Part shown: positions 1,799 through 18,419 of the stretch, piece after piece
Position numbering within the stretch: the first letter of the stretch is position 1
How the letters are laid out: each line of letters starts with the position of its first letter
DNA from: an uncultured delta proteobacterium
Lineage (GTDB): Bacteria; Myxococcota_A; Polyangia; Fen-1088
Direction of reading: 5' to 3'
DNA: 64,000 nucleotides
Assembly: GCA_963767925.1 (NCBI GenBank)
Contig: CAVYGB010000006.1
Location: 64,001 to 128,000, forward strand
The notes under the pieces: generated by a model
Told to the model about the DNA's origin: nothing
What the model saw: the letters and a program-made list of their open reading frames with translations, nothing else
Database searches by the model: none
Translations under genes and position numbers: made by a program

Positions 1799-1896
1799 GG
1801 CGGCATTATGGACGAGAACCCGCCCGCCTTCACGGGTCCTGCGCCCGCCAGGGTCGTTGACAGTGCGCCGTCGGGTACGGCAGGGTCGTCCCTTAC

Positions 1897-2808
1897 ATGG
1901 CTGCGCAGCGGGATGAGCGCACGGACCCGACGCGGCGTCGCCCGATCCGCTGGGGGGCCGTCGGCCTCTCCCTGTTGCTCACGCCGGTGGCCGGGTACGT
2001 CGCCATCGGGAGGGAACGACGCGGCTTGACCCTGCTGGGGGCCGAGCTCCTCTACTTCGCGGTCGCCGTCGTGGGCGCCCTGCTGGTGGTGCCAGTCCTG
2101 ATGTACGCCGCCCTGGCCGCCGCGCTGTTACACGGGCTGGGGGCCCTCTTCGACGTCGCCCGCCTGTCGCGCACCGGCCGGGCCGACCCGACCTGGGGGC
2201 GGGGGGTGGCCGCCGGGCTGGGGGCCCTGGCGGTCACCAGCGGGGTCGGGCTGCTCGTGCGCACCTACGTTTTGGAGGCGCTGGACAACTCGGCCAACGC
2301 CATGGTGCCGACCCTCGAGGCGGGCGATCGTTTTTTCGTCAACAAGCTCGATCGCAAGGTCGGGCGCGGCGACGTCATCGTGTTCCGCTATCCCCCCGAT
2401 CCCAGCGTGCGCTACGTGCAGCGGGTGGTGGCGGTGGCCGGTGACACCGTCGCCGTCGAGGAGGGGGAGTTCCTCATCAACGGGCAGGCCCCCCACAGCC
2501 AGCGGCTGGGGGTCGATCAGCGGATGGATCCGGTGATGGGCCAGCACATCGTCGAGCGCTGGAAGGAGACCCTCGACGGCAAGTCCTACACCATCTACCG
2601 TCGGGCGGGGCCGATGGCGATCTGGGTCGGCCAGGAGGTCCCCGAGGGCCACGTCTTCGTGCTGGGGGACAACCGCGACAACAGCAACGACTCGCGCACC
2701 TGGGGCACCGTCCCGCTCGAGCTGGTGCAGGGGCGGGCCCTCTTCACCTGGTGGTCGAGCGACGCCCGCGGCATCCGCTGGCCTCGCTTCAACCAGCGGA
2801 TCGAGTAG
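1897..2808 (+). CDS. signal peptidase I (S26) homologue with N-terminal multi-TM region; catalytic Ser and Lys substituted
   Basis: S26 boxes [16 protein letters not shown] and [11 protein letters not shown] present, but SANAM replaces PSGSM and YVQRVV replaces YIKRVV. Confidence 0.85.
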
Positions 2809-11769: not shown

Positions 11770-13371
11770 TCAGCGCGGCGTGGGCGCGGGGGCCAGCGGT
11801 CCGAAGACGTGCAGGCCGCGCCCCTCGGGCGCGGTCTCGGCGGTGCCGAACACGACCGCGTCGCTGGCCCGGCCGACCACCGAGACGTTGTCCCGGTCCA
11901 CCTCGGACAGGATCACCTTGCCAGCGACGTCGGCCGGGCGCCCGTCGAAGTCGGCCAGGTGCAGGAAGGTCAGCACGCGCGAGTCGCGAGCCACCGCCCG
12001 GCCCACCACCAGCCCGCGGGGGCCGCTGGCCACCAGGTACTGCAGGCCCCGCCCCAGGACCTGGACCCCGCCGCAGTCCTCCGGCCGGGCCACGAAGGTC
12101 AAGCTGCCCGCTTCGTCCTGCGGGTCGGGCTCGCTCCAGTGGACGAGGCCCAGGTTGGCGATCACCGTCGCGGTGTAGGCGATGGTCTCGGGGCTGCTCG
12201 ACAGCCGGCAGGAGGTCCCCCGCTCGTTGTCGCCGATGAGCCCCCGCTCGCCCGCGTCGTCGACCTGCAGGACGTAGGTGAAGCGACCGTCGCCGAGCGG
12301 GTACCAGGCGTGGGCGCCGGGCGCGAGGGTGAAGCGCCCCTCGGGCTGGCGGCGATCCTTGACCACGTTGAGCACCCCCTCGAGGCCGCGCAGCTCGGTG
12401 ACGAAGGTGACCCCCTCGCCCGCCAGCGGCTCGAACCCGGCCACGCCCTTGGCCAGCTCGCCGGTCAGAGTGCCGGAGGGGAAGTCGGCCGCCCAGAGAG
12501 GGCCCTCGCCGCGATCCCGCGAGCCGCCCCGCAGGAAGAACACCGCCTGCCCGTCGGCCGAGAAGGTCCAGTACCAGCCGTCCTCGACGACGGTGCGGGC
12601 GCTGGCCCGCCCCAGCTCGGCCACCGGCACGGCTCGCAGCGCCTCGGCCACCTCCCCCTCGCGCCAGCTCGAATACACGAACTGCCTCTCGTCGCGCGAG
12701 AACTGGGCCGACCAGGAGAGGCCCCCGCCCCGCTCGGGGGCGATGCGCTCGATCAGCGGCAGCAGGCTGTCGTCGCGATCGACGAGCGGCCCGGCCCGCA
12801 GGTCGAACTCGAGCGGATCGTCGTCGACCCCGTCGATGCAGAAGGCGTAGCGGCCGCTGGGGCTGCCCACGCACTGCACACCGCGCGCGGTCGAGAGCTT
12901 GCGGGGGCCGGCCCAGCCCGGTCGCCAGGCCCAGACGAAGCCCTCGTAGCGGTCGCGGTTGGCCTCGGGGTGCTCCTCGGCGAGGAAAAACAGCGTGTCC
13001 CCCTCGAACCGATGGGCCTCCGGGTGCGACATGCTGCCGATGCGCAGCTCCGTGAACAGGCGGTCGGTCATGCGCAGGCAGCCGGAGCTGCGGCCGTCGC
13101 AGGCCACCGCCTCACCGCCCATGACCCGGGTGACGTCGATGACCCAGAGCTCGGTGCGGAGGGCGTCTTCGGGGGTCGGCCGATAAAAGGCGCAGTAGCG
13201 GTGTCCGTTCGGCTCCGTCGGGTCGCCCTGGCTGCAGGCGCCGCTGCCGCTCCAGCCTGCCAGCCGGGCGGGGCCAGGCACCAGGAGCCGCAGCTCCGGC
13301 GGGGCCGCCAGGTCCCCCTCGCAGGCCGCCACCAACCCCAGCAACACCGAGTAGCGAAGCACCGCCCGCAT
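11770..13371 (-). CDS. hypothetical lipoprotein, possibly beta-propeller-like
   Basis: MRAVLRYSVLLGLVAAC lipobox; FSRDE and FSADG repeats; stop abuts the start of the hydrolase gene. Confidence 0.75.
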   Translation of the reverse strand: MRAVLRYSVLLGLVAACEGDLAAPPELRLLVPGPARLAGWSGSGACSQGDPTEPNGHRYCAFYRPTPEDALRTELWVIDVTRVMGGEAVACDGRSSGCLRMTDRLFTELRIGSMSHPEAHRFEGDTLFFLAEEHPEANRDRYEGFVWAWRPGWAGPRKLSTARGVQCVGSPSGRYAFCIDGVDDDPLEFDLRAGPLVDRDDSLLPLIERIAPERGGGLSWSAQFSRDERQFVYSSWREGEVAEALRAVPVAELGRASARTVVEDGWYWTFSADGQAVFFLRGGSRDRGEGPLWAADFPSGTLTGELAKGVAGFEPLAGEGVTFVTELRGLEGVLNVVKDRRQPEGRFTLAPGAHAWYPLGDGRFTYVLQVDDAGERGLIGDNERGTSCRLSSSPETIAYTATVIANLGLVHWSEPDPQDEAGSLTFVARPEDCGGVQVLGRGLQYLVASGPRGLVVGRAVARDSRVLTFLHLADFDGRPADVAGKVILSEVDRDNVSVVGRASDAVVFGTAETAPEGRGLHVFGPLAPAPTPR

Positions 13372-13415
13372 ATGCCGAGCAGCAGAGCACGCTGACGCGG
13401 GACGATCAAGCACGA

Positions 13416-13495
13416 CAGGGAGCAGCAGAGACGCCGAGCTCGGATGGCCCTGGAATCCCAGGTCCGTCCGATCTCGGCGGCTCCGTTGCTCCCTG
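13416..13495. terminator. 38-bp-stem hairpin downstream of the repeat-peptide gene (terminator or mRNA-stabilising structure)
   Basis: Arm 13416-13453 versus arm 13458-13495: 32/38 Watson-Crick matches, 4-nt loop; no clear U-tract. Confidence 0.6.
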
Positions 13496-13524
13496 CGAAT
13501 GTGCGCGTCGGGACGGCACCGGTC

Positions 13525-14187
13525 CTACCGGGCGATGAGCGTCCGGCTGTGGTTCATGCCGGCCAGACCGGCCTTGATCCCGCTGCGCACCACCAGGCCG
13601 GACTTGTTGTGGTTCATCCCGGCCAGACCGGCCTTGATCCCGCTGCGCACCACCAGCCCGGACTTGTTGTGGTTCATCCCGGCCAGACCGGCCTTGATCC
13701 CGCTGCGTACCACCAGCCCGGACTTGTTGTGGTTCATCCCGGCCAGACCGGCCTTGATCCCGCTGCGCACCACCAGCCCGGACTTGTTGTGGTTCATCCC
13801 GGCCAGGCCGGCCTTGATCCCGCTGCGCACCACCAGCCCGGACTTGTTGTGGTTCATCCCGGCCAGGCCGGCCTTGATCCCGCTGCGCACCACCAGCCCG
13901 GACTTGTTGTGGTTCATCCCGGCCAGGCCGGCCTTGATCCCGCTGCGCACCACCAGCCCGGACTTGTTGTGGTTCATCCCGGCCAGGCCGGCCTTGATCC
14001 CGCTGCGCACCACCAGCCCGGACTTGTTGTGGTTCATCCCGGCCAGGCCGGCCTTGATCCCGCTGCGCACCACCAGCCCGGACTTGTTGTGGTTCATCCC
14101 GGCCAGGCCGGCCTTGATCCCGCTGCGCACCACCAGCCCGGACTTGTTCTCGACCTTGGTGTTGATGGCGGACTTGATGGTCTTCAT
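13525..14187 (-). CDS. multi-cassette peptide precursor (13-aa N-terminus + 10 x NKSGLVVRSGIKAGLAGMNH + SRTLIAR)
   Basis: ATG 14187 with GAAAGG RBS; all four inter-copy variant sites are silent third positions only in this frame. Confidence 0.85.
   Translation of the reverse strand: MKTIKSAINTKVENKSGLVVRSGIKAGLAGMNHNKSGLVVRSGIKAGLAGMNHNKSGLVVRSGIKAGLAGMNHNKSGLVVRSGIKAGLAGMNHNKSGLVVRSGIKAGLAGMNHNKSGLVVRSGIKAGLAGMNHNKSGLVVRSGIKAGLAGMNHNKSGLVVRSGIKAGLAGMNHNKSGLVVRSGIKAGLAGMNHNKSGLVVRSGIKAGLAGMNHSRTLIAR
13549..14148. repeat. tandem repeat, 10 x 60 bp
   Basis: Ten consecutive near-identical 60-nt units; variants at 13558, 13597, 13708 and 13567/13627/13687/13747. Confidence 0.98.
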
Positions 14188-14254
14188 AGCTGTGTACCTT
14201 TCTCTCGGAGTTTTCTTCGTTCCCGGCCCGACTGACCGGACGAATCTCAGAGAT

Positions 14255-14271
14255 TGCAGGGATGGTGCCAG
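14255..14271 (-). promoter_or_regulatory. sigma-54 (-24/-12) promoter for the repeat-peptide gene
   Basis: Minus strand CTGGCAC-CATCC-CTGCA matches YTGGCAC-N5-TTGCW with one mismatch, about 70 nt upstream of the ATG. Confidence 0.7.
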
Positions 14272-14380
14272 GTCGCCCGGGGGCGCTCCCGGGGCCGATG
14301 AGGGCGAGATCACGGGGCCTCGGGCCGCCCGCTGCCCCGTGGATCAGCCCCGCGACCCGGTTTCAAGCCCGCCAACCACA

Positions 14381-14400
14381 GTGACTCGCGCGCGAGTCAC
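14381..14400. promoter_or_regulatory. perfect 20-bp palindrome, candidate enhancer-binding-protein site or rSAM 3' hairpin
   Basis: gtgactcgcgcgcgagtcac, 110-130 bp upstream of the sigma-54 box. Confidence 0.5.
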
Positions 14401-14409
14401 GTGATTCGA

Positions 14410-16350
14410 CTAGCTGCCAGCCAGGGCGCGTCGGATGAGGTCGGGAGCGACGCGGGCGGCGGGGATGGCCCGGCGCCGATCCCGGTCGAACCAGCTCCGC
14501 ACGTCCCGGTCCAGCCCGACGCCGTGCATGTAATTGTAGAGCGCCTTGCGCAGGCCCGGACCCAGCCGCTCGTGGTCGCAGCCGGTGGGGTCGTCGAAGG
14601 GGACCTCGTTGCGGGCGAAGGTGGCGGGCGCCTCCGGGCGCAGGCGGATCCCGAACAGGTCGGGCCGCTGCCCGATCGGGCTGTGGGCGGTCGCCGCGAA
14701 GCGGTGCCAGAACCCCGACTGGATGCATCCTTCGGCGAAGAGCTGACGCACGCGTTCGAGGGCGTCGACCGTCTCCTGCTCGGTCTCGCTGGGGAAGCCG
14801 TACATGAGATAGGCGTGCACGAGCACCCCGGCATCGCTGAAGGCCCGCGCCACCCGCGCCACCTGGGCCACCGTGACGCCCTTCTTCATGAGGTCGAGCA
14901 GCCGGTCCGAGGCAACCTCGAGCCCGCCGCTCACCGCCACGCAGCCCGAGCGGGCCAGCAGCTCGACCAGGCCCGGGGTGAAGCTCTTCTCGAAGCGGAT
15001 GTTCCCCCACCACGTGATGGCGAGCTGGCGATCGATCAGGCGCTGGGCCAGCGCGCGCAGAGCCGCCGGGGGGGCCGCCTCGTCGACGAAGTGAAACCCG
15101 GTCTGCCCGGTCTCGCGCACCAGCGCCTCGATGCGGTCGACGGTGACCTCGGCCGAGGCGGCCTCGTAGCGGGAGATGTAGTCGAGGGTGACGTCGCAGA
15201 AGGTGCACTTCTTCCAGTAGCAGCCGCGGGCCACCGTCAGCTTGTTCCAGCGCCCGTCCGACCAGAGGCGGTGCATGGGGTTGAGCATCTCGAAGAGCGA
15301 CACGTAGCTGCCCAGGGGGAGGCCGTCGTAGGTCGGCGTGCCGGTCTCGGCGTGGTGCAGATCGGAGAGCCCCTCGCTCGTCGCCAGCACCACCGCCCCC
15401 TCCCGGCGGACGAAGGTGCGCAGCAGCGGCCGGGCGGGATCGCGCAGGTGATCGATCAGGGCCAGCAGCGGCCGCTCGCCGTCGTCGAGGGTGAGGAAGT
15501 CGCAGGCCTCGAACACGCGGGGCTCGGCGAGCTGGCGCAGCTCCGTGTTGACGTAGCCACCGCCCAGCGCGACCTGGGTGCCGGGGCGTTCGGCCTTGAC
15601 CACCCGGGCGATGCGCAGGGCCCCGTAGAGGTTTCCCGGGAAGGGGACGGTCAGCCCGAGCAGGTCGGGCGCCTGGCTGCACACCCGGTCGCGGGCCAGC
15701 CGGTCGAGCTCGGCGTCGACCAGGGTGGGCGGGCCTTGCAGGGCCTCGGCCAGGTCGTCGAAGCGGCTGGCGCTGGCGGCGAGCTTCTCGCCGTAGCGGG
15801 ACAGCTCGAAGCGGGGGTCGATCCCGTCGCGGATGACGTCGGCGATCTCGTCGACGAACAGGCTCGCCAGGTGGCGGGCACGGTCGGTGGTGCCGAGGTC
15901 GCCGAAGGCCCAGCCGAGCGGGTCGTCGCCGGACGGATCGGCGGGGAGGGCGGCGGCGAAGCGCGGCCCTTCCGGCAAGAAAGTGCGCCCCACGATGCGC
16001 ATCGCCAGGCTGGGATCCCGCCCCTGCAGGAAGGCGATGACCGGCTCGACGAGGGCCAGGTAACGCTCGGCCTGATCGAGGAAGAAGCCCACCGAGGGAG
16101 GCTCGTCCCGACGGCGGGCAGCCGCGCGGCCCCGGCCCGAGGGCGCAGCTCGCTGCCCCTCGAGCTGCGCCCGCACCTTGCCCAGCCCCTCCCGGGAGAA
16201 GAGCCGCAAGAACAGCTCGATCGAGAGGTCGGCCTGGGCGACCTCGACGCCGGCGGGGGCGTGTTTGCGCAGGCAGCCGGTCAGGTACGCCGTCGCCGGG
16301 TAGGGCGTATTCAACTGCGTCATCGGCGGCGTCACCAGGAGCACGCGCAT
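14410..16350 (-). CDS. cobalamin-binding-domain radical SAM protein
   Basis: MRVLLVTPPMTQLNTPYPATAYL N-terminus, ALGGGY, DDGE, CYWKKCTFC (CxxxCxxC), FHFVDE, GGLEVAS, YLMYGFP. Confidence 0.92.
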   Translation of the reverse strand: MRVLLVTPPMTQLNTPYPATAYLTGCLRKHAPAGVEVAQADLSIELFLRLFSREGLGKVRAQLEGQRAAPSGRGRAAARRRDEPPSVGFFLDQAERYLALVEPVIAFLQGRDPSLAMRIVGRTFLPEGPRFAAALPADPSGDDPLGWAFGDLGTTDRARHLASLFVDEIADVIRDGIDPRFELSRYGEKLAASASRFDDLAEALQGPPTLVDAELDRLARDRVCSQAPDLLGLTVPFPGNLYGALRIARVVKAERPGTQVALGGGYVNTELRQLAEPRVFEACDFLTLDDGERPLLALIDHLRDPARPLLRTFVRREGAVVLATSEGLSDLHHAETGTPTYDGLPLGSYVSLFEMLNPMHRLWSDGRWNKLTVARGCYWKKCTFCDVTLDYISRYEAASAEVTVDRIEALVRETGQTGFHFVDEAAPPAALRALAQRLIDRQLAITWWGNIRFEKSFTPGLVELLARSGCVAVSGGLEVASDRLLDLMKKGVTVAQVARVARAFSDAGVLVHAYLMYGFPSETEQETVDALERVRQLFAEGCIQSGFWHRFAATAHSPIGQRPDLFGIRLRPEAPATFARNEVPFDDPTGCDHERLGPGLRKALYNYMHGVGLDRDVRSWFDRDRRRAIPAARVAPDLIRRALAGS

Positions 16351-16455: not shown

Positions 16456-17241
16456 ATGCTGGTCAGCCCGATCTCGCGATCCAGTCTGGACTCGGATAGC
16501 CGGGAACGCGTCATGGAGGCCATGGCCCGACGCAGGCCCCGCGCGAGCAAAGCCGAACCCGGTGACCCGGTCGACCCGACCGATCTCGTCGACCTGCGCG
16601 TCAGGACCGGCGAGGTCGCCAAGGACGACGAAACCCGGCGCGCCAACGAAAAAGAGAAGGACAAGGGCAAAGCTCCGACCACCGATCCCACCCGCGAGGA
16701 CGAAGAGCTCGACCCGCGCGAGCGGGCCCAGGTGGAGGGCCTGCGCCGCCGCGACCGCGAGGTGCGGGCCCACGAGGCGGCGCATGCCGCGGCCGCCGGC
16801 GGCCTGGGGGGCGGAGCGTCTTATACCTACGTGACCGGTCCCGACGGCAAGCGCTACGCCGTCGGCGGCGAGGTCCCGGTGCGGCTGGCCACCGGCCACA
16901 CGCCCGAGGAGACCCTCCGCAACGCACAGCAGGTGCGCGCCGCCGCCTTGGCCCCGGCCGAGCCCTCCAGCCAGGACCGGGCCGTCGCCGCCCAGGCCAC
17001 CGCCATGGAGGCCGCTGCGCGCATGGAGATGTCCCGGACCCGCGACGTCGAAGCCGCCGAACGGGCCGTCCGCGCCCGCGCGCAGGGCGCCAGCCGCGCC
17101 TCGGACAACCGGACCGTCGACCCCGAAGCCACCCTCCGCCAGCTCGAACGCGAGCAACGCACCGTCCGCGGCGGCTGGAAGCACCTCCACAGCAGCGGCG
17201 GCTGCGGCGGCTGCGCCGTGGCGGTCGCCGCGTACCGGTAG
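16456..17241 (+). CDS. SprA-related family protein (HExxH putative metalloprotease motif)
   Basis: DREVRAHEAAH, SYTYVTGPDGKRYAVGGEV, AALAPAEPSSQDRAVAA are hallmark motifs. Confidence 0.88.
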   Translation: MLVSPISRSSLDSDSRERVMEAMARRRPRASKAEPGDPVDPTDLVDLRVRTGEVAKDDETRRANEKEKDKGKAPTTDPTREDEELDPRERAQVEGLRRRDREVRAHEAAHAAAAGGLGGGASYTYVTGPDGKRYAVGGEVPVRLATGHTPEETLRNAQQVRAAALAPAEPSSQDRAVAAQATAMEAAARMEMSRTRDVEAAERAVRARAQGASRASDNRTVDPEATLRQLEREQRTVRGGWKHLHSSGGCGGCAVAVAAYR

Positions 17242-17635: not shown

Positions 17636-18322
17636 TCACTGAAGGATCTTGGGGGACTCGCCGGGGTCGATCAAACCGCGGCGGCGCCAGCCCACCGTGG
17701 CGAGCCAGGTGCGGGCGGAACCGGTGACCGAGGGTTCGGACGGCGGCGTGAGGGGGAAGCGGAAGCCGTCGAACCAGGGGGCCGAGGAGCAGGGGGCCGA
17801 GGAGCAGGGGTCGATGTGCCCGCGGTCGCGCAGACCGTGTTTCTTGTGGTTCATGAGAACGTAGACGAGCGCGTTGCGTACCTCCCGCGGCGTCGCCAGC
17901 TCGCGCGCGTGATACCGGTCGCCCCAGATGCGGCCGCTGCGCTTGCAGGCTCGGTTGCTGGCCAGCGCGCTCCGGATCACCAGCCTCCGCGCGCCGAAAG
18001 AGAGCGCCGCCTTGTCCTCCGCCTCCACCAGCAGGTGCACGTGATCGGCCTGCACCGAGAACTGCACGACCCGGAACACCGCTGAGCTCGACGCGCGAAA
18101 GCAGTCCCGCAACACCTGGAAGATCCGCTTGCTCCGCAGCGAGACCAACCCTGCCCTGGCGCGCAAGGTCACGTGCAACGGATGGGCGCCCTTGTGGGGC
18201 GGCCGCGCCCGATGCGGCGCCGGCCGCCTCCGCCCGAGAATCGGAGGCCGCCCGGCCCCCTTCCGTCGCCCACCCCACCCGGAGGTCCGAGGCAAGGCGA
18301 GCGAGCGTGACGCGGGCGACAT
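17636..18322 (-). mobile_element. HUH Y1 transposase, REP-associated tyrosine transposase (RAYT)/IS200-like
   Basis: PLHVTLR, FSVQADHVHLLVEA (HUH), IWGDRYHARELATPREVRNALVYVLMN (catalytic Tyr), DPCSSAPWF. Confidence 0.85.
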
Positions 18323-18419
18323 TCCATTTGATTGAGGCAATAGTATTGCCCATGCAGCAAAATTCAAGTACGAACGTACGGTCCGGTTCGAGCGGGCGTC
18401 GCTGTCGACCAGCGGCGGT

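Follow-up and report, generated by a model that had tools for sequence, protein, structure and literature searches.

For Gram-positive bacteria it is textbook knowledge that peptides can serve as signals with the help of a cutting exporter and a membrane sensor, and ComCDE/ComAB and Blp are peptide quorum-sensing systems in which exporter and sensor are linked to the peptide. To our knowledge, such signalling is almost never known from the Gram-negative soil phyla. Multi-core precursors of RiPPs (peptides made by the ribosome and modified after translation) include cyanobactin PatE and those of the dikaritins, PoyB/PoyC and TsrM are B12-dependent radical S-adenosylmethionine (SAM) methyltransferases of RiPPs, and yeast alpha-factor is a tandem pro-pheromone released by Kex2-type dibasic cleavage in the secretory pathway. 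ATP-binding cassette (ABC) transporters with a C39 peptidase domain remove leaders at small-residue double-glycine motifs and export signalling or antimicrobial peptides, the Gram-negative ones having an accessory protein and an outer-membrane factor as partners (PMC6363468). HetC, a peptidase-containing ABC transporter (PCAT), serves cell differentiation in Nostoc (PMC10986499), and microviridin precursors can be multi-core (PMC5934393). Hanks-type receptor kinases acting with extracytoplasmic function (ECF) sigma factors have been described as PknS/EcfK in Xanthomonas citri (PMC13147305) and as PknT/EcfP in Vibrio (reviewed in PMC8999054). Here we analyse a 220-residue open reading frame (ORF) made of ten identical cassettes, carried by a 64,000-nucleotide stretch of an uncultured delta proteobacterium (assembly GCA_963767925.1, contig CAVYGB010000006.1, positions 64,001 to 128,000), the whole of which is called the window below. 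This ORF is a real gene and a candidate repeat-cassette peptide precursor. Sequence comparison makes it an orphan member, expanded in recent time, of a large family without earlier description. We give about even chances to a reading in which the orphan precursor is driven by sigma-54, exported, and cut at K-A-G(-G) into unmodified cationic peptides of about 20 residues that serve as signals or antimicrobials.

The precursor gene and its family

The precursor gene comprises the following features.
13525..14187, minus strand: 220-aa ORF, start codon ATG at 14187
13549..14148, minus strand: ten 60-bp cassettes, each encoding NKSGLVVRSGIKAGLAGMNH (repeat finder and translation)
14197..14206, minus strand: Shine-Dalgarno-like GAGAGAAAGG, 9 nt 5' of the ATG, read from the sequence
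14255..14270, minus strand: sigma-54-type -24/-12 element TGGCAC-N5-CTGCA, 68 nt 5' of the ATG
about 13410..13504, minus strand: long imperfect hairpin, just 3' of the precursor stop codon

The protein reads MKTIKSAINTKVE, then ten times NKSGLVVRSGIKAGLAGMNH, then SRTLIAR, that is, an N-terminus of 13 residues, ten identical cassettes of 20 residues and a tail of 7. Tandem Repeats Finder reported the array at 13548-14148 with a period of 60, 10.0 copies, 99% matches and a score of 1153. The ten 60-bp units vary at 4 positions only, each of them a third codon position and each synonymous in the frame of the ORF; the same 4 changes alter residues in 4 of the 5 other frames, and the remaining frame has a stop in every unit. 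From these synonymous sites we deduced that the frame of the ORF is the coding one, and that the expansion is recent or has been homogenised. Cys, Asp and Glu are all absent from the cassettes, as the original prediction, made from the letters of the window, had noted for Cys and the acidic residues, and the whole protein contains 23 K, 12 R, 10 H and a single E (pI 12.0). The 3' junction of the array (13378-13579) was matched without difference by a short-read contig from a soil metagenome run; the run may be the source sample, and the contig is uninformative on the copy number of the array. Coverage of the region by the two DNA runs compared is partial, of low depth and in short contigs.

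The promoter fits the GG-N10-GC pattern (-24/-12) of sigma-54-dependent genes and lies at a suitable distance from the start. No cognate enhancer-binding protein (sigma-54 activator) is encoded inside the window, and many activators are encoded elsewhere in the genome. The hairpin has a folding energy of -75.9 kcal/mol (z = -5.96, none of 200 shuffles being equally stable); it has no U-tract, and a simple terminator scan of the region returned no canonical terminator. It is probably a transcript end or stabiliser, and it might be a repetitive extragenic palindromic (REP)-like element served by an IS200/Y1-like transposase. The original prediction had described the ORF, its cassettes, the ribosome-binding site, the promoter, the hairpin and a co-oriented radical SAM gene at 222 bp, and all of these are present.

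A profile search of a collection of 5.8 billion proteins, with 8000 candidates scored, retrieved at least 1580 proteins at E <= 0.001, all of them named hypothetical and without a Pfam family, some being labelled Polyangia. The same family was followed through genomes by profile search: cassette peptides were found in 46 of the 89 genomes of the window's taxonomic family and in 4 of 401 genomes sampled across the phylum, the window's own genome being included in both counts. The distribution by genus is uneven (23/26 in genus g2, 7/8 in g11, 0/13 in g8 and 0/11 in g16). Arrays in other lineages came from one degenerate DNA pattern scan, most single-match loci of which look like chance; we kept 15 of the 18 listed loci with two or more matches, omitting L130, L184 and L185, which share contigs with L129 and L164 and overlap them. 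The matches listed include multi-cassette arrays from Acidobacteriota (Paludibaculum, Pyrinomonadaceae, Acidobacteriia and Bryobacterales), from Singulisphaera among the Planctomycetota and from Sorangium sp. So ce1000, whose genome is complete. The original prediction had mentioned short KAG...NHN peptides in myxobacteria-like genomes, and these searches bear this out with a large family. The peptide itself was matched by no family of Pfam or NCBIfam (Imm45, VIT1, TilS_C and the like being low-complexity noise, with 0 passing stretches), the ESM Atlas returned solely unnamed Myxococcota and Acidobacteriota clusters, and our literature search, subscription journals being uncovered, found no published description of the family. 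All matches within the window's genome fall at this one locus, the precursor gene being the sole family member found there.

The family consensus was built on 552 cassettes from 164 proteins and reads G-L-K-V-(K/R)-(S/T)-x-(V/I)-K-A-G-(G), a variable stretch, and N-H-N-(R/Q/E). K-A-G and N-H are near-invariant across the 552 cassettes; the variable stretches are 3-16 residues long and 370 of them are distinct. In this register the cassette of the window reads SGLVVRSGIKAG, then LAGM, then NHNK. Family genes carry from 2 to about 20 cassettes, and within single genes the cassettes are often identical with the last one deviating. The array at L101 (contig C12 of genome G427, about 1834-2718, minus strand) has about 20 shorter cassettes, GLRVRTAVKAG-x-NH, without N-R; its variable stretch differs in nearly every cassette, one having two Cys, which gives the array a library-like appearance.

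We also considered, and rejected, that the array might be antisense to a kinase gene extended at its C-terminal end. The peptide frame is favoured by the synonymous sites, by starts with Met-Lys-Thr and by the promoters found upstream. Filtering ORFs by the G+C content of third codon positions did not discriminate the frames in the lower-GC genomes.

Recurrent partners and the proposed mechanism

Neighbourhoods were compared for 44 peptide genes in 54 loci. In 14 of the 54, including loci of two other Myxococcota families, the fetched flanks contain a gene with Peptidase_C39, ABC_membrane and ABC_tran domains together with a second ABC gene. The same link was found in 6 of the 15 multi-match loci of the pattern scan, namely in Paludibaculum, Pyrinomonadaceae, Singulisphaera, Sorangium, one Acidobacteriota metagenome-assembled genome (MAG), where the C39 domain match alone lies at the end of the fetched stretch, and one Myxococcota MAG, whose contig is also that of one of the 14. 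The set comprises a tetratricopeptide repeat (TPR) protein, an HlyD-type fusion protein, the PCAT and a second ABC protein. The original prediction had asked whether such peptides co-occur with a modifying enzyme or a protease, and a protease does recur near the family, in the form of the C39 peptidase domain of this exporter. In the window's genome TPR, HlyD, PCAT and second ABC genes stand in a row on another contig (C10), and the peptidase keeps the Q...DCGPAAL...HF...DP motifs common to other PCATs, which we take to be the catalytic Gln, Cys, His and Asp. A motif search found no cassette peptide beside the C10 exporter. An exporter without a local substrate and a lone substrate-like gene elsewhere in the same genome suggest that the two work together in trans.

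Divergent from the C10 exporter set lies a 525-aa ORF (L107:17203-18780, plus strand) with a lipoprotein-like signal (...VASGC), about 17 tandem N-(I/V)-(G/S)-G-(Q/H) units (a 15-bp repeat in 16.8 copies) and, after the repeats, a domain that is about 350 aa long and belongs to no Pfam family. It is a second Gly-Gly-rich repeat protein and adjoins a peptide-cutting exporter.

A gene with Pkinase and TPR domains lies within 600 bp of 28 of the 44 peptide genes (22 convergent, 5 divergent and 1 co-directional). Relative genomes have 85-135 kinase genes each, from which we estimate chance adjacency to a peptide gene at a few per cent. The linked kinases belong to one subfamily, made of a catalytic domain, a basic stretch, one hydrophobic helix and about 500 further residues, with four invariant Cys after the helix and TPR repeats at the end; this layout suggests outward-facing, single-pass Hanks-type Ser/Thr sensors. 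Some have an anti-sigma-like zf-HC2 N-terminus (those scanned being at L029 and L034) and some an AAA_16 module. A stand-alone TPR protein of about 410 aa (TPR_12/TPR_10 type) also recurs near family genes, and the remaining neighbours scanned are unrelated housekeeping genes. At L164 three peptide genes are found, two of them each followed by a kinase. At L068, L071, L081, L083 and L085 some peptide genes have a convergent kinase gene on one side and a divergent one on the other, both from a single subfamily, and at L068 two peptide genes bracket one kinase; the double-flanked loci suggest local duplication of the peptide-kinase pair. A complex prediction for the outer domain of the L027 kinase with its neighbouring peptide gave a score of 0.02 and a mark of 0.32 and was not used as evidence. 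A reading of the peptide as partner of an NLR (NOD-like receptor)-type amyloid signalling motif was rejected, no matching motif being seen in the two kinase sequences inspected.

The sigma-54 promoter noticed in the window proved to be a conserved feature of the family: of the 44 genes, 26 have a -24/-12 element in the 200 nt upstream, a length in which chance would give 0.006. A sigma-54 activator with a forkhead-associated (FHA) domain is divergent from the peptide gene at L022 and L072 and adjoins it in Sorangium. A second element, CGTCCGAA-N3-5-CGGA, partly palindromic, lies 60-120 nt upstream of the peptide genes of L029, L030, L034, L074 and L075, and these are all five of its occurrences in the 1.7 Mb scanned. 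An ECF-type sigma gene adjoins all 5 of these peptide genes (the one scanned, at L029, scores 231.7 bits for TIGR03001 against a cut-off of 154.6), and the element is a candidate ECF promoter or operator.

From these partners we infer export, the site of cleavage, the unmodified state of the peptides and their sensing. Sigma-54 RNA polymerase and an activator would transcribe the precursor gene of the window, and the 220-aa product would be taken up by the exporter encoded on C10. Its peptidase domain would cut at K-A-G(-G), which closes the N-terminal 27 residues and recurs in each cassette. In most family proteins the stretch from Met to the end of the first KAG is 9-25 residues long (median 17, n=145), which would suit a leader; because of this position, and because the same flank precedes every variable stretch, we propose that the exporter peptidase cuts at each motif. 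Cutting after every KAG would yield a 27-residue leader, nine 20-mers LAGMNHNKSGLVVRSGIKAG (2008.10 Da, about +3) and, as the last product, one 13-mer LAGMNHSRTLIAR (1438.78 Da). The peptides would be unmodified, and the unmodified signalling peptide that the original prediction listed as an alternative fits better than a RiPP. Of its reading, the repeat-cassette precursor candidate is supported, and the central claim, modification by the B12 radical SAM enzyme, is not. In the relatives, the peptides would, most probably, feed back on the receptor kinase encoded next to them and close an autoinduction loop: one kinase per peptide, a hypervariable stretch and a dedicated promoter resemble cognate signal-receptor pairs with autoinduction. 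Alternatively, the peptides may act as cationic antimicrobials.

Taken as a full account of its own, the antimicrobial alternative holds that bacteriocin-like cationic peptides, processed and exported in the way just proposed, would kill or inhibit competitors, and that the kinases regulate their production without sensing them. The predicted fragments are amphipathic, with a charge of about +3 for every 20 residues, a high copy number of cassettes would increase the peptide dose, and bacteriocins are commonly served by PCAT exporters (PMC6363468). Yet no recurrent immunity-like gene was seen among the neighbours scanned, and one kinase per peptide gene with several paralogous pairs per genome, as at L164, is more like signal-receptor pairs. 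We regard this account as unlikely. Another possibility is that the protein is never exported and serves the kinase in the cytoplasm as a multi-site substrate, pseudosubstrate or phospho-adaptor through Ser/Thr residues of its cassettes. A Ser or Thr does stand three residues ahead of KAG in 418 of the 552 cassettes, many N-termini are Thr-rich and FHA-domain activators lie nearby; but the same position is L, A or G in many cassettes, Ser is as frequent as Thr, the association with the exporter is left unexplained and no matching kinase was found in the window's genome. A cytoplasmic role is accordingly very improbable in our view.

Several observations weigh against export, cleavage and sensing of the cassette peptides. 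The window itself contains no exporter, and no kinase lies within 33 kb of its precursor gene; in the window's genome (84% complete) a search for the outer domain of the linked kinases gave no ortholog and one weak TPR hit. Exporter and peptide are imperfectly coupled in the relatives: a PCAT match (E <= 1e-60) is present in 38 of 45 peptide-positive genomes and also in 23 of 43 peptide-negative ones, 11/11 genomes of genus g16 and 8/13 of g8 have the exporter where no peptide was detected, 4/5 genomes of genus g9 carry peptides and 0/5 the exporter, and the PCAT loci of four genomes (G016, G456, G010 and G003) have no adjoining cassette peptide. The motif departs from a double glycine, with G following KAG in only 338 of 552 cassettes and all ten cassettes of the window reading K-A-G-L. 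The flank alternates basic and hydrophobic residues and is beta-strand-like, without the helical Leu-12/Leu-7/Val-4 pattern; its hydrophobic residues lie at -5, -9 and -11 counted from KAGG, and counted from KAG only -4 fits the expected -4/-7/-12. Finally, many of the sampled loci are orthologous, among them many f1 loci (RpoD-FtsW-ArsA-like-DUF5916 synteny), so that raw neighbour counts overstate their independence. The recurrence of the partners over three phyla is a stronger argument than these counts.

A strand-like flank is also what would be expected by a further alternative, in which the protein stays intact, losing at most a leader, and forms a beta-rich repeat structure (a solenoid, an amyloid-like assembly or a surface fibre) with the cassettes as structural rungs and the variable stretches as loops. 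The AlphaFold model, which also weighs against the peptide reading, is all-beta with a 20-residue periodicity at moderate confidence (pLDDT 65.5, pTM 0.60), and Foldseek gave weak rows, all at E > 0.8, for beta-helix proteins and for the amyloid FapC. The alternation of basic and hydrophobic residues is accompanied by a Gly turn and by conserved Asn/His positions. Against this structure, the model is inconsistent between its halves and no PDB structure reached E <= 0.001 in Foldseek; structure predictions of such repeats are often over-confident. With about +3 charges on each rung and no acidic residue at all, stacking would be unfavourable, and the insert length of 3-16 residues varies even inside one protein. 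We find an intact beta-repeat protein decidedly unlikely.

The neighbouring radical SAM gene

The genes around the precursor, and the ORF that occupies its slot in the sister species, are listed below.
14410..16350, minus strand: B12-type radical SAM gene, 646 aa, co-oriented with the precursor gene, its stop 222 nt from the precursor ATG
11770..13413, minus strand: 547-aa gene with a lipoprotein-like N-terminus, just downstream of the hairpin, kept in the sister species
16456..17241, plus strand: SprA-related ORF, just upstream of the radical SAM gene
17636..18367, minus strand: IS200/Y1-transposase-like ORF (E 1.2e-5), upstream of the radical SAM gene
L105:992-2104 (contig C721, sister species), minus strand: 370-aa ORF in the slot, convergent

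The original prediction held that the radical SAM enzyme was B12-dependent and possibly modified the peptide. The enzyme class is recovered in its radical SAM half (Radical_SAM, E 3.8e-14), while the B12-binding match, at 22.8 bits, stays below the Pfam cut-off of 32.1. Its best NCBIfam match is TIGR03975 (RiPP C-methyltransferases) with 90.6 bits against a cut-off of 281.85, and all 22 NCBIfam matches fall under their curated cut-offs. PADLOC gave no match for the peptide or the radical SAM protein, and the 547-aa gene matched neither Pfam nor NCBIfam.

All of the 24 genomes sampled from the window's family have an ortholog of the radical SAM gene, with 53-82% identity and mostly as one full-length match, and among them are genera in which the profile search detected no cassette peptide. 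In the relatives possessing both, the radical SAM and peptide genes are on different contigs. The flanks of the radical SAM gene are not conserved: the window's neighbours recur in 0 of 11 ortholog loci, flanking ORFs are shared only among the three closest relatives, and in the closest relative a convergent 378-aa ORF follows the radical SAM gene, with no peptide gene. Conversely, tblastn found no radical SAM homolog in 73 loci (53 peptide loci of relatives, 15 of other lineages and 5 exporter loci). The only other genome of the same genus keeps both the radical SAM gene and the downstream 547-aa gene, and between them has about 1.2 kb of unrelated DNA with the convergent 370-aa ORF, whose HLGN and KMSKS motifs, read by eye, make it look like a class I aminoacyl-tRNA synthetase. 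The content of this slot shows that the region has been rearranged locally between these two species of a single genus. Since the flanks are unconserved, no radical SAM gene is found at the other loci and the sister slot holds another gene, the adjacency is peculiar to this genome; the radical SAM protein appears to be a lineage-wide enzyme and a physical neighbour only.

These results bear directly on the RiPP model, in which the neighbouring B12 enzyme would methylate or otherwise modify each cassette before cleavage. In its favour, both genes point the same way with 222 nt between them, the closest NCBIfam resemblance of the enzyme is to the RiPP C-methyltransferases, and co-transcription is possible, no terminator having been found between them. 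But the resemblance lies far under the family cut-off, the enzyme is present in every family genome sampled, peptide-less ones included, it is at none of the other loci and has no conserved flanks, a different gene fills the slot in the sister species, and the precursor gene has a promoter of its own. No modifying enzyme recurs among the neighbours scanned (selected ORFs of about 30 loci) either, so that neither the proposed modification by this enzyme nor the RiPP reading at large was sustained. Comparative genomics brings the model close to refutation, and we consider it scarcely credible.

Significance and comparison with known systems

As a tentative proposal, on which we place less than even reliance, the family would represent peptide signalling of Gram-negative soil bacteria, with pro-peptides cut at every K-A-G(-G), export by the TPR-HlyD-PCAT-ABC set, sensing by Hanks-type kinases and autoinduction through FHA-sigma-54 or ECF regulators. 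Peptides differing in their variable stretch would then provide several private channels per genome, and the window gene would be a "shouter without an ear", a signal amplified ten-fold whose exporter has been kept and whose receptor has been lost. As a precursor design, too, the family would be new, with the export and cleavage motif repeated in each cassette. With its recurrent partners (exporter, TPR protein, Hanks kinase and sigma-54 or ECF route) it is a concrete, testable candidate; the cultured strain Sorangium sp. So ce1000 carries the full partner set, a single locus there holding kinase, FHA activator, a 7-cassette peptide gene, PCAT and second ABC gene, and the cassette family as a whole merits experimental follow-up. 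The locus also carries a caution for genome mining: a repeat peptide beside a B12 radical SAM gene looked RiPP-like, and comparative genomics suggests that the adjacency is accidental.

Compared with multi-core RiPP precursors, the family shares tandem cassettes, conserved flanks, a variable core and a varying copy number. It differs from them in having no recurring modifying enzyme: a PatA/PatG-type protease, an ATP-grasp enzyme, a radical SAM enzyme and a UstYa-type oxidase were all absent among the neighbours scanned. The enzyme beside the window gene is like PoyB/PoyC and TsrM in its radical SAM core and its weak B12-binding domain match, and unlike them has no conserved link to any peptide gene and scores under all cut-offs. 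With yeast alpha-factor the window gene has in common many identical short peptide copies per translation product, without homology.

Double-glycine/C39 systems (ComC/ComAB, class II bacteriocins and LahA/LahT; PMC6363468) are similar to the family in several respects: small peptide genes lie near a PCAT gene, a small-residue motif stands about 17 residues from Met with hypervariable sequence after it, and, as in the Gram-negative representatives, the exporter set has an HlyD-type partner. The family departs from these systems in that motif and flank are repeated in each of the 2 to about 20 cassettes of a gene, an alternating strand takes the place of the Leu-12/Glu-8/Leu-7/Val-4 helix as flank, and the second Gly is missing in 39% of cassettes, including all ten here. 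The linked sensor is also a Hanks-type Ser/Thr kinase, not a histidine kinase, and the cleavage is predicted.

Five family loci resemble the PknS/EcfK and PknT/EcfP pairs, their peptide gene standing between ECF-type sigma and kinase genes. The repeat-peptide gene has no counterpart described in the abstracts on those systems, and in place of an ECF sigma factor most of the family relies on sigma-54 with an FHA activator. From ComCDE and Blp the family differs in kinase class, regulators and precursor architecture, in the mostly convergent arrangement of peptide and kinase genes and in its function, which is predicted; it resembles them in bringing together a peptide gene, a cutting exporter, a membrane sensor and a dedicated transcription factor that apparently drives the peptide gene.

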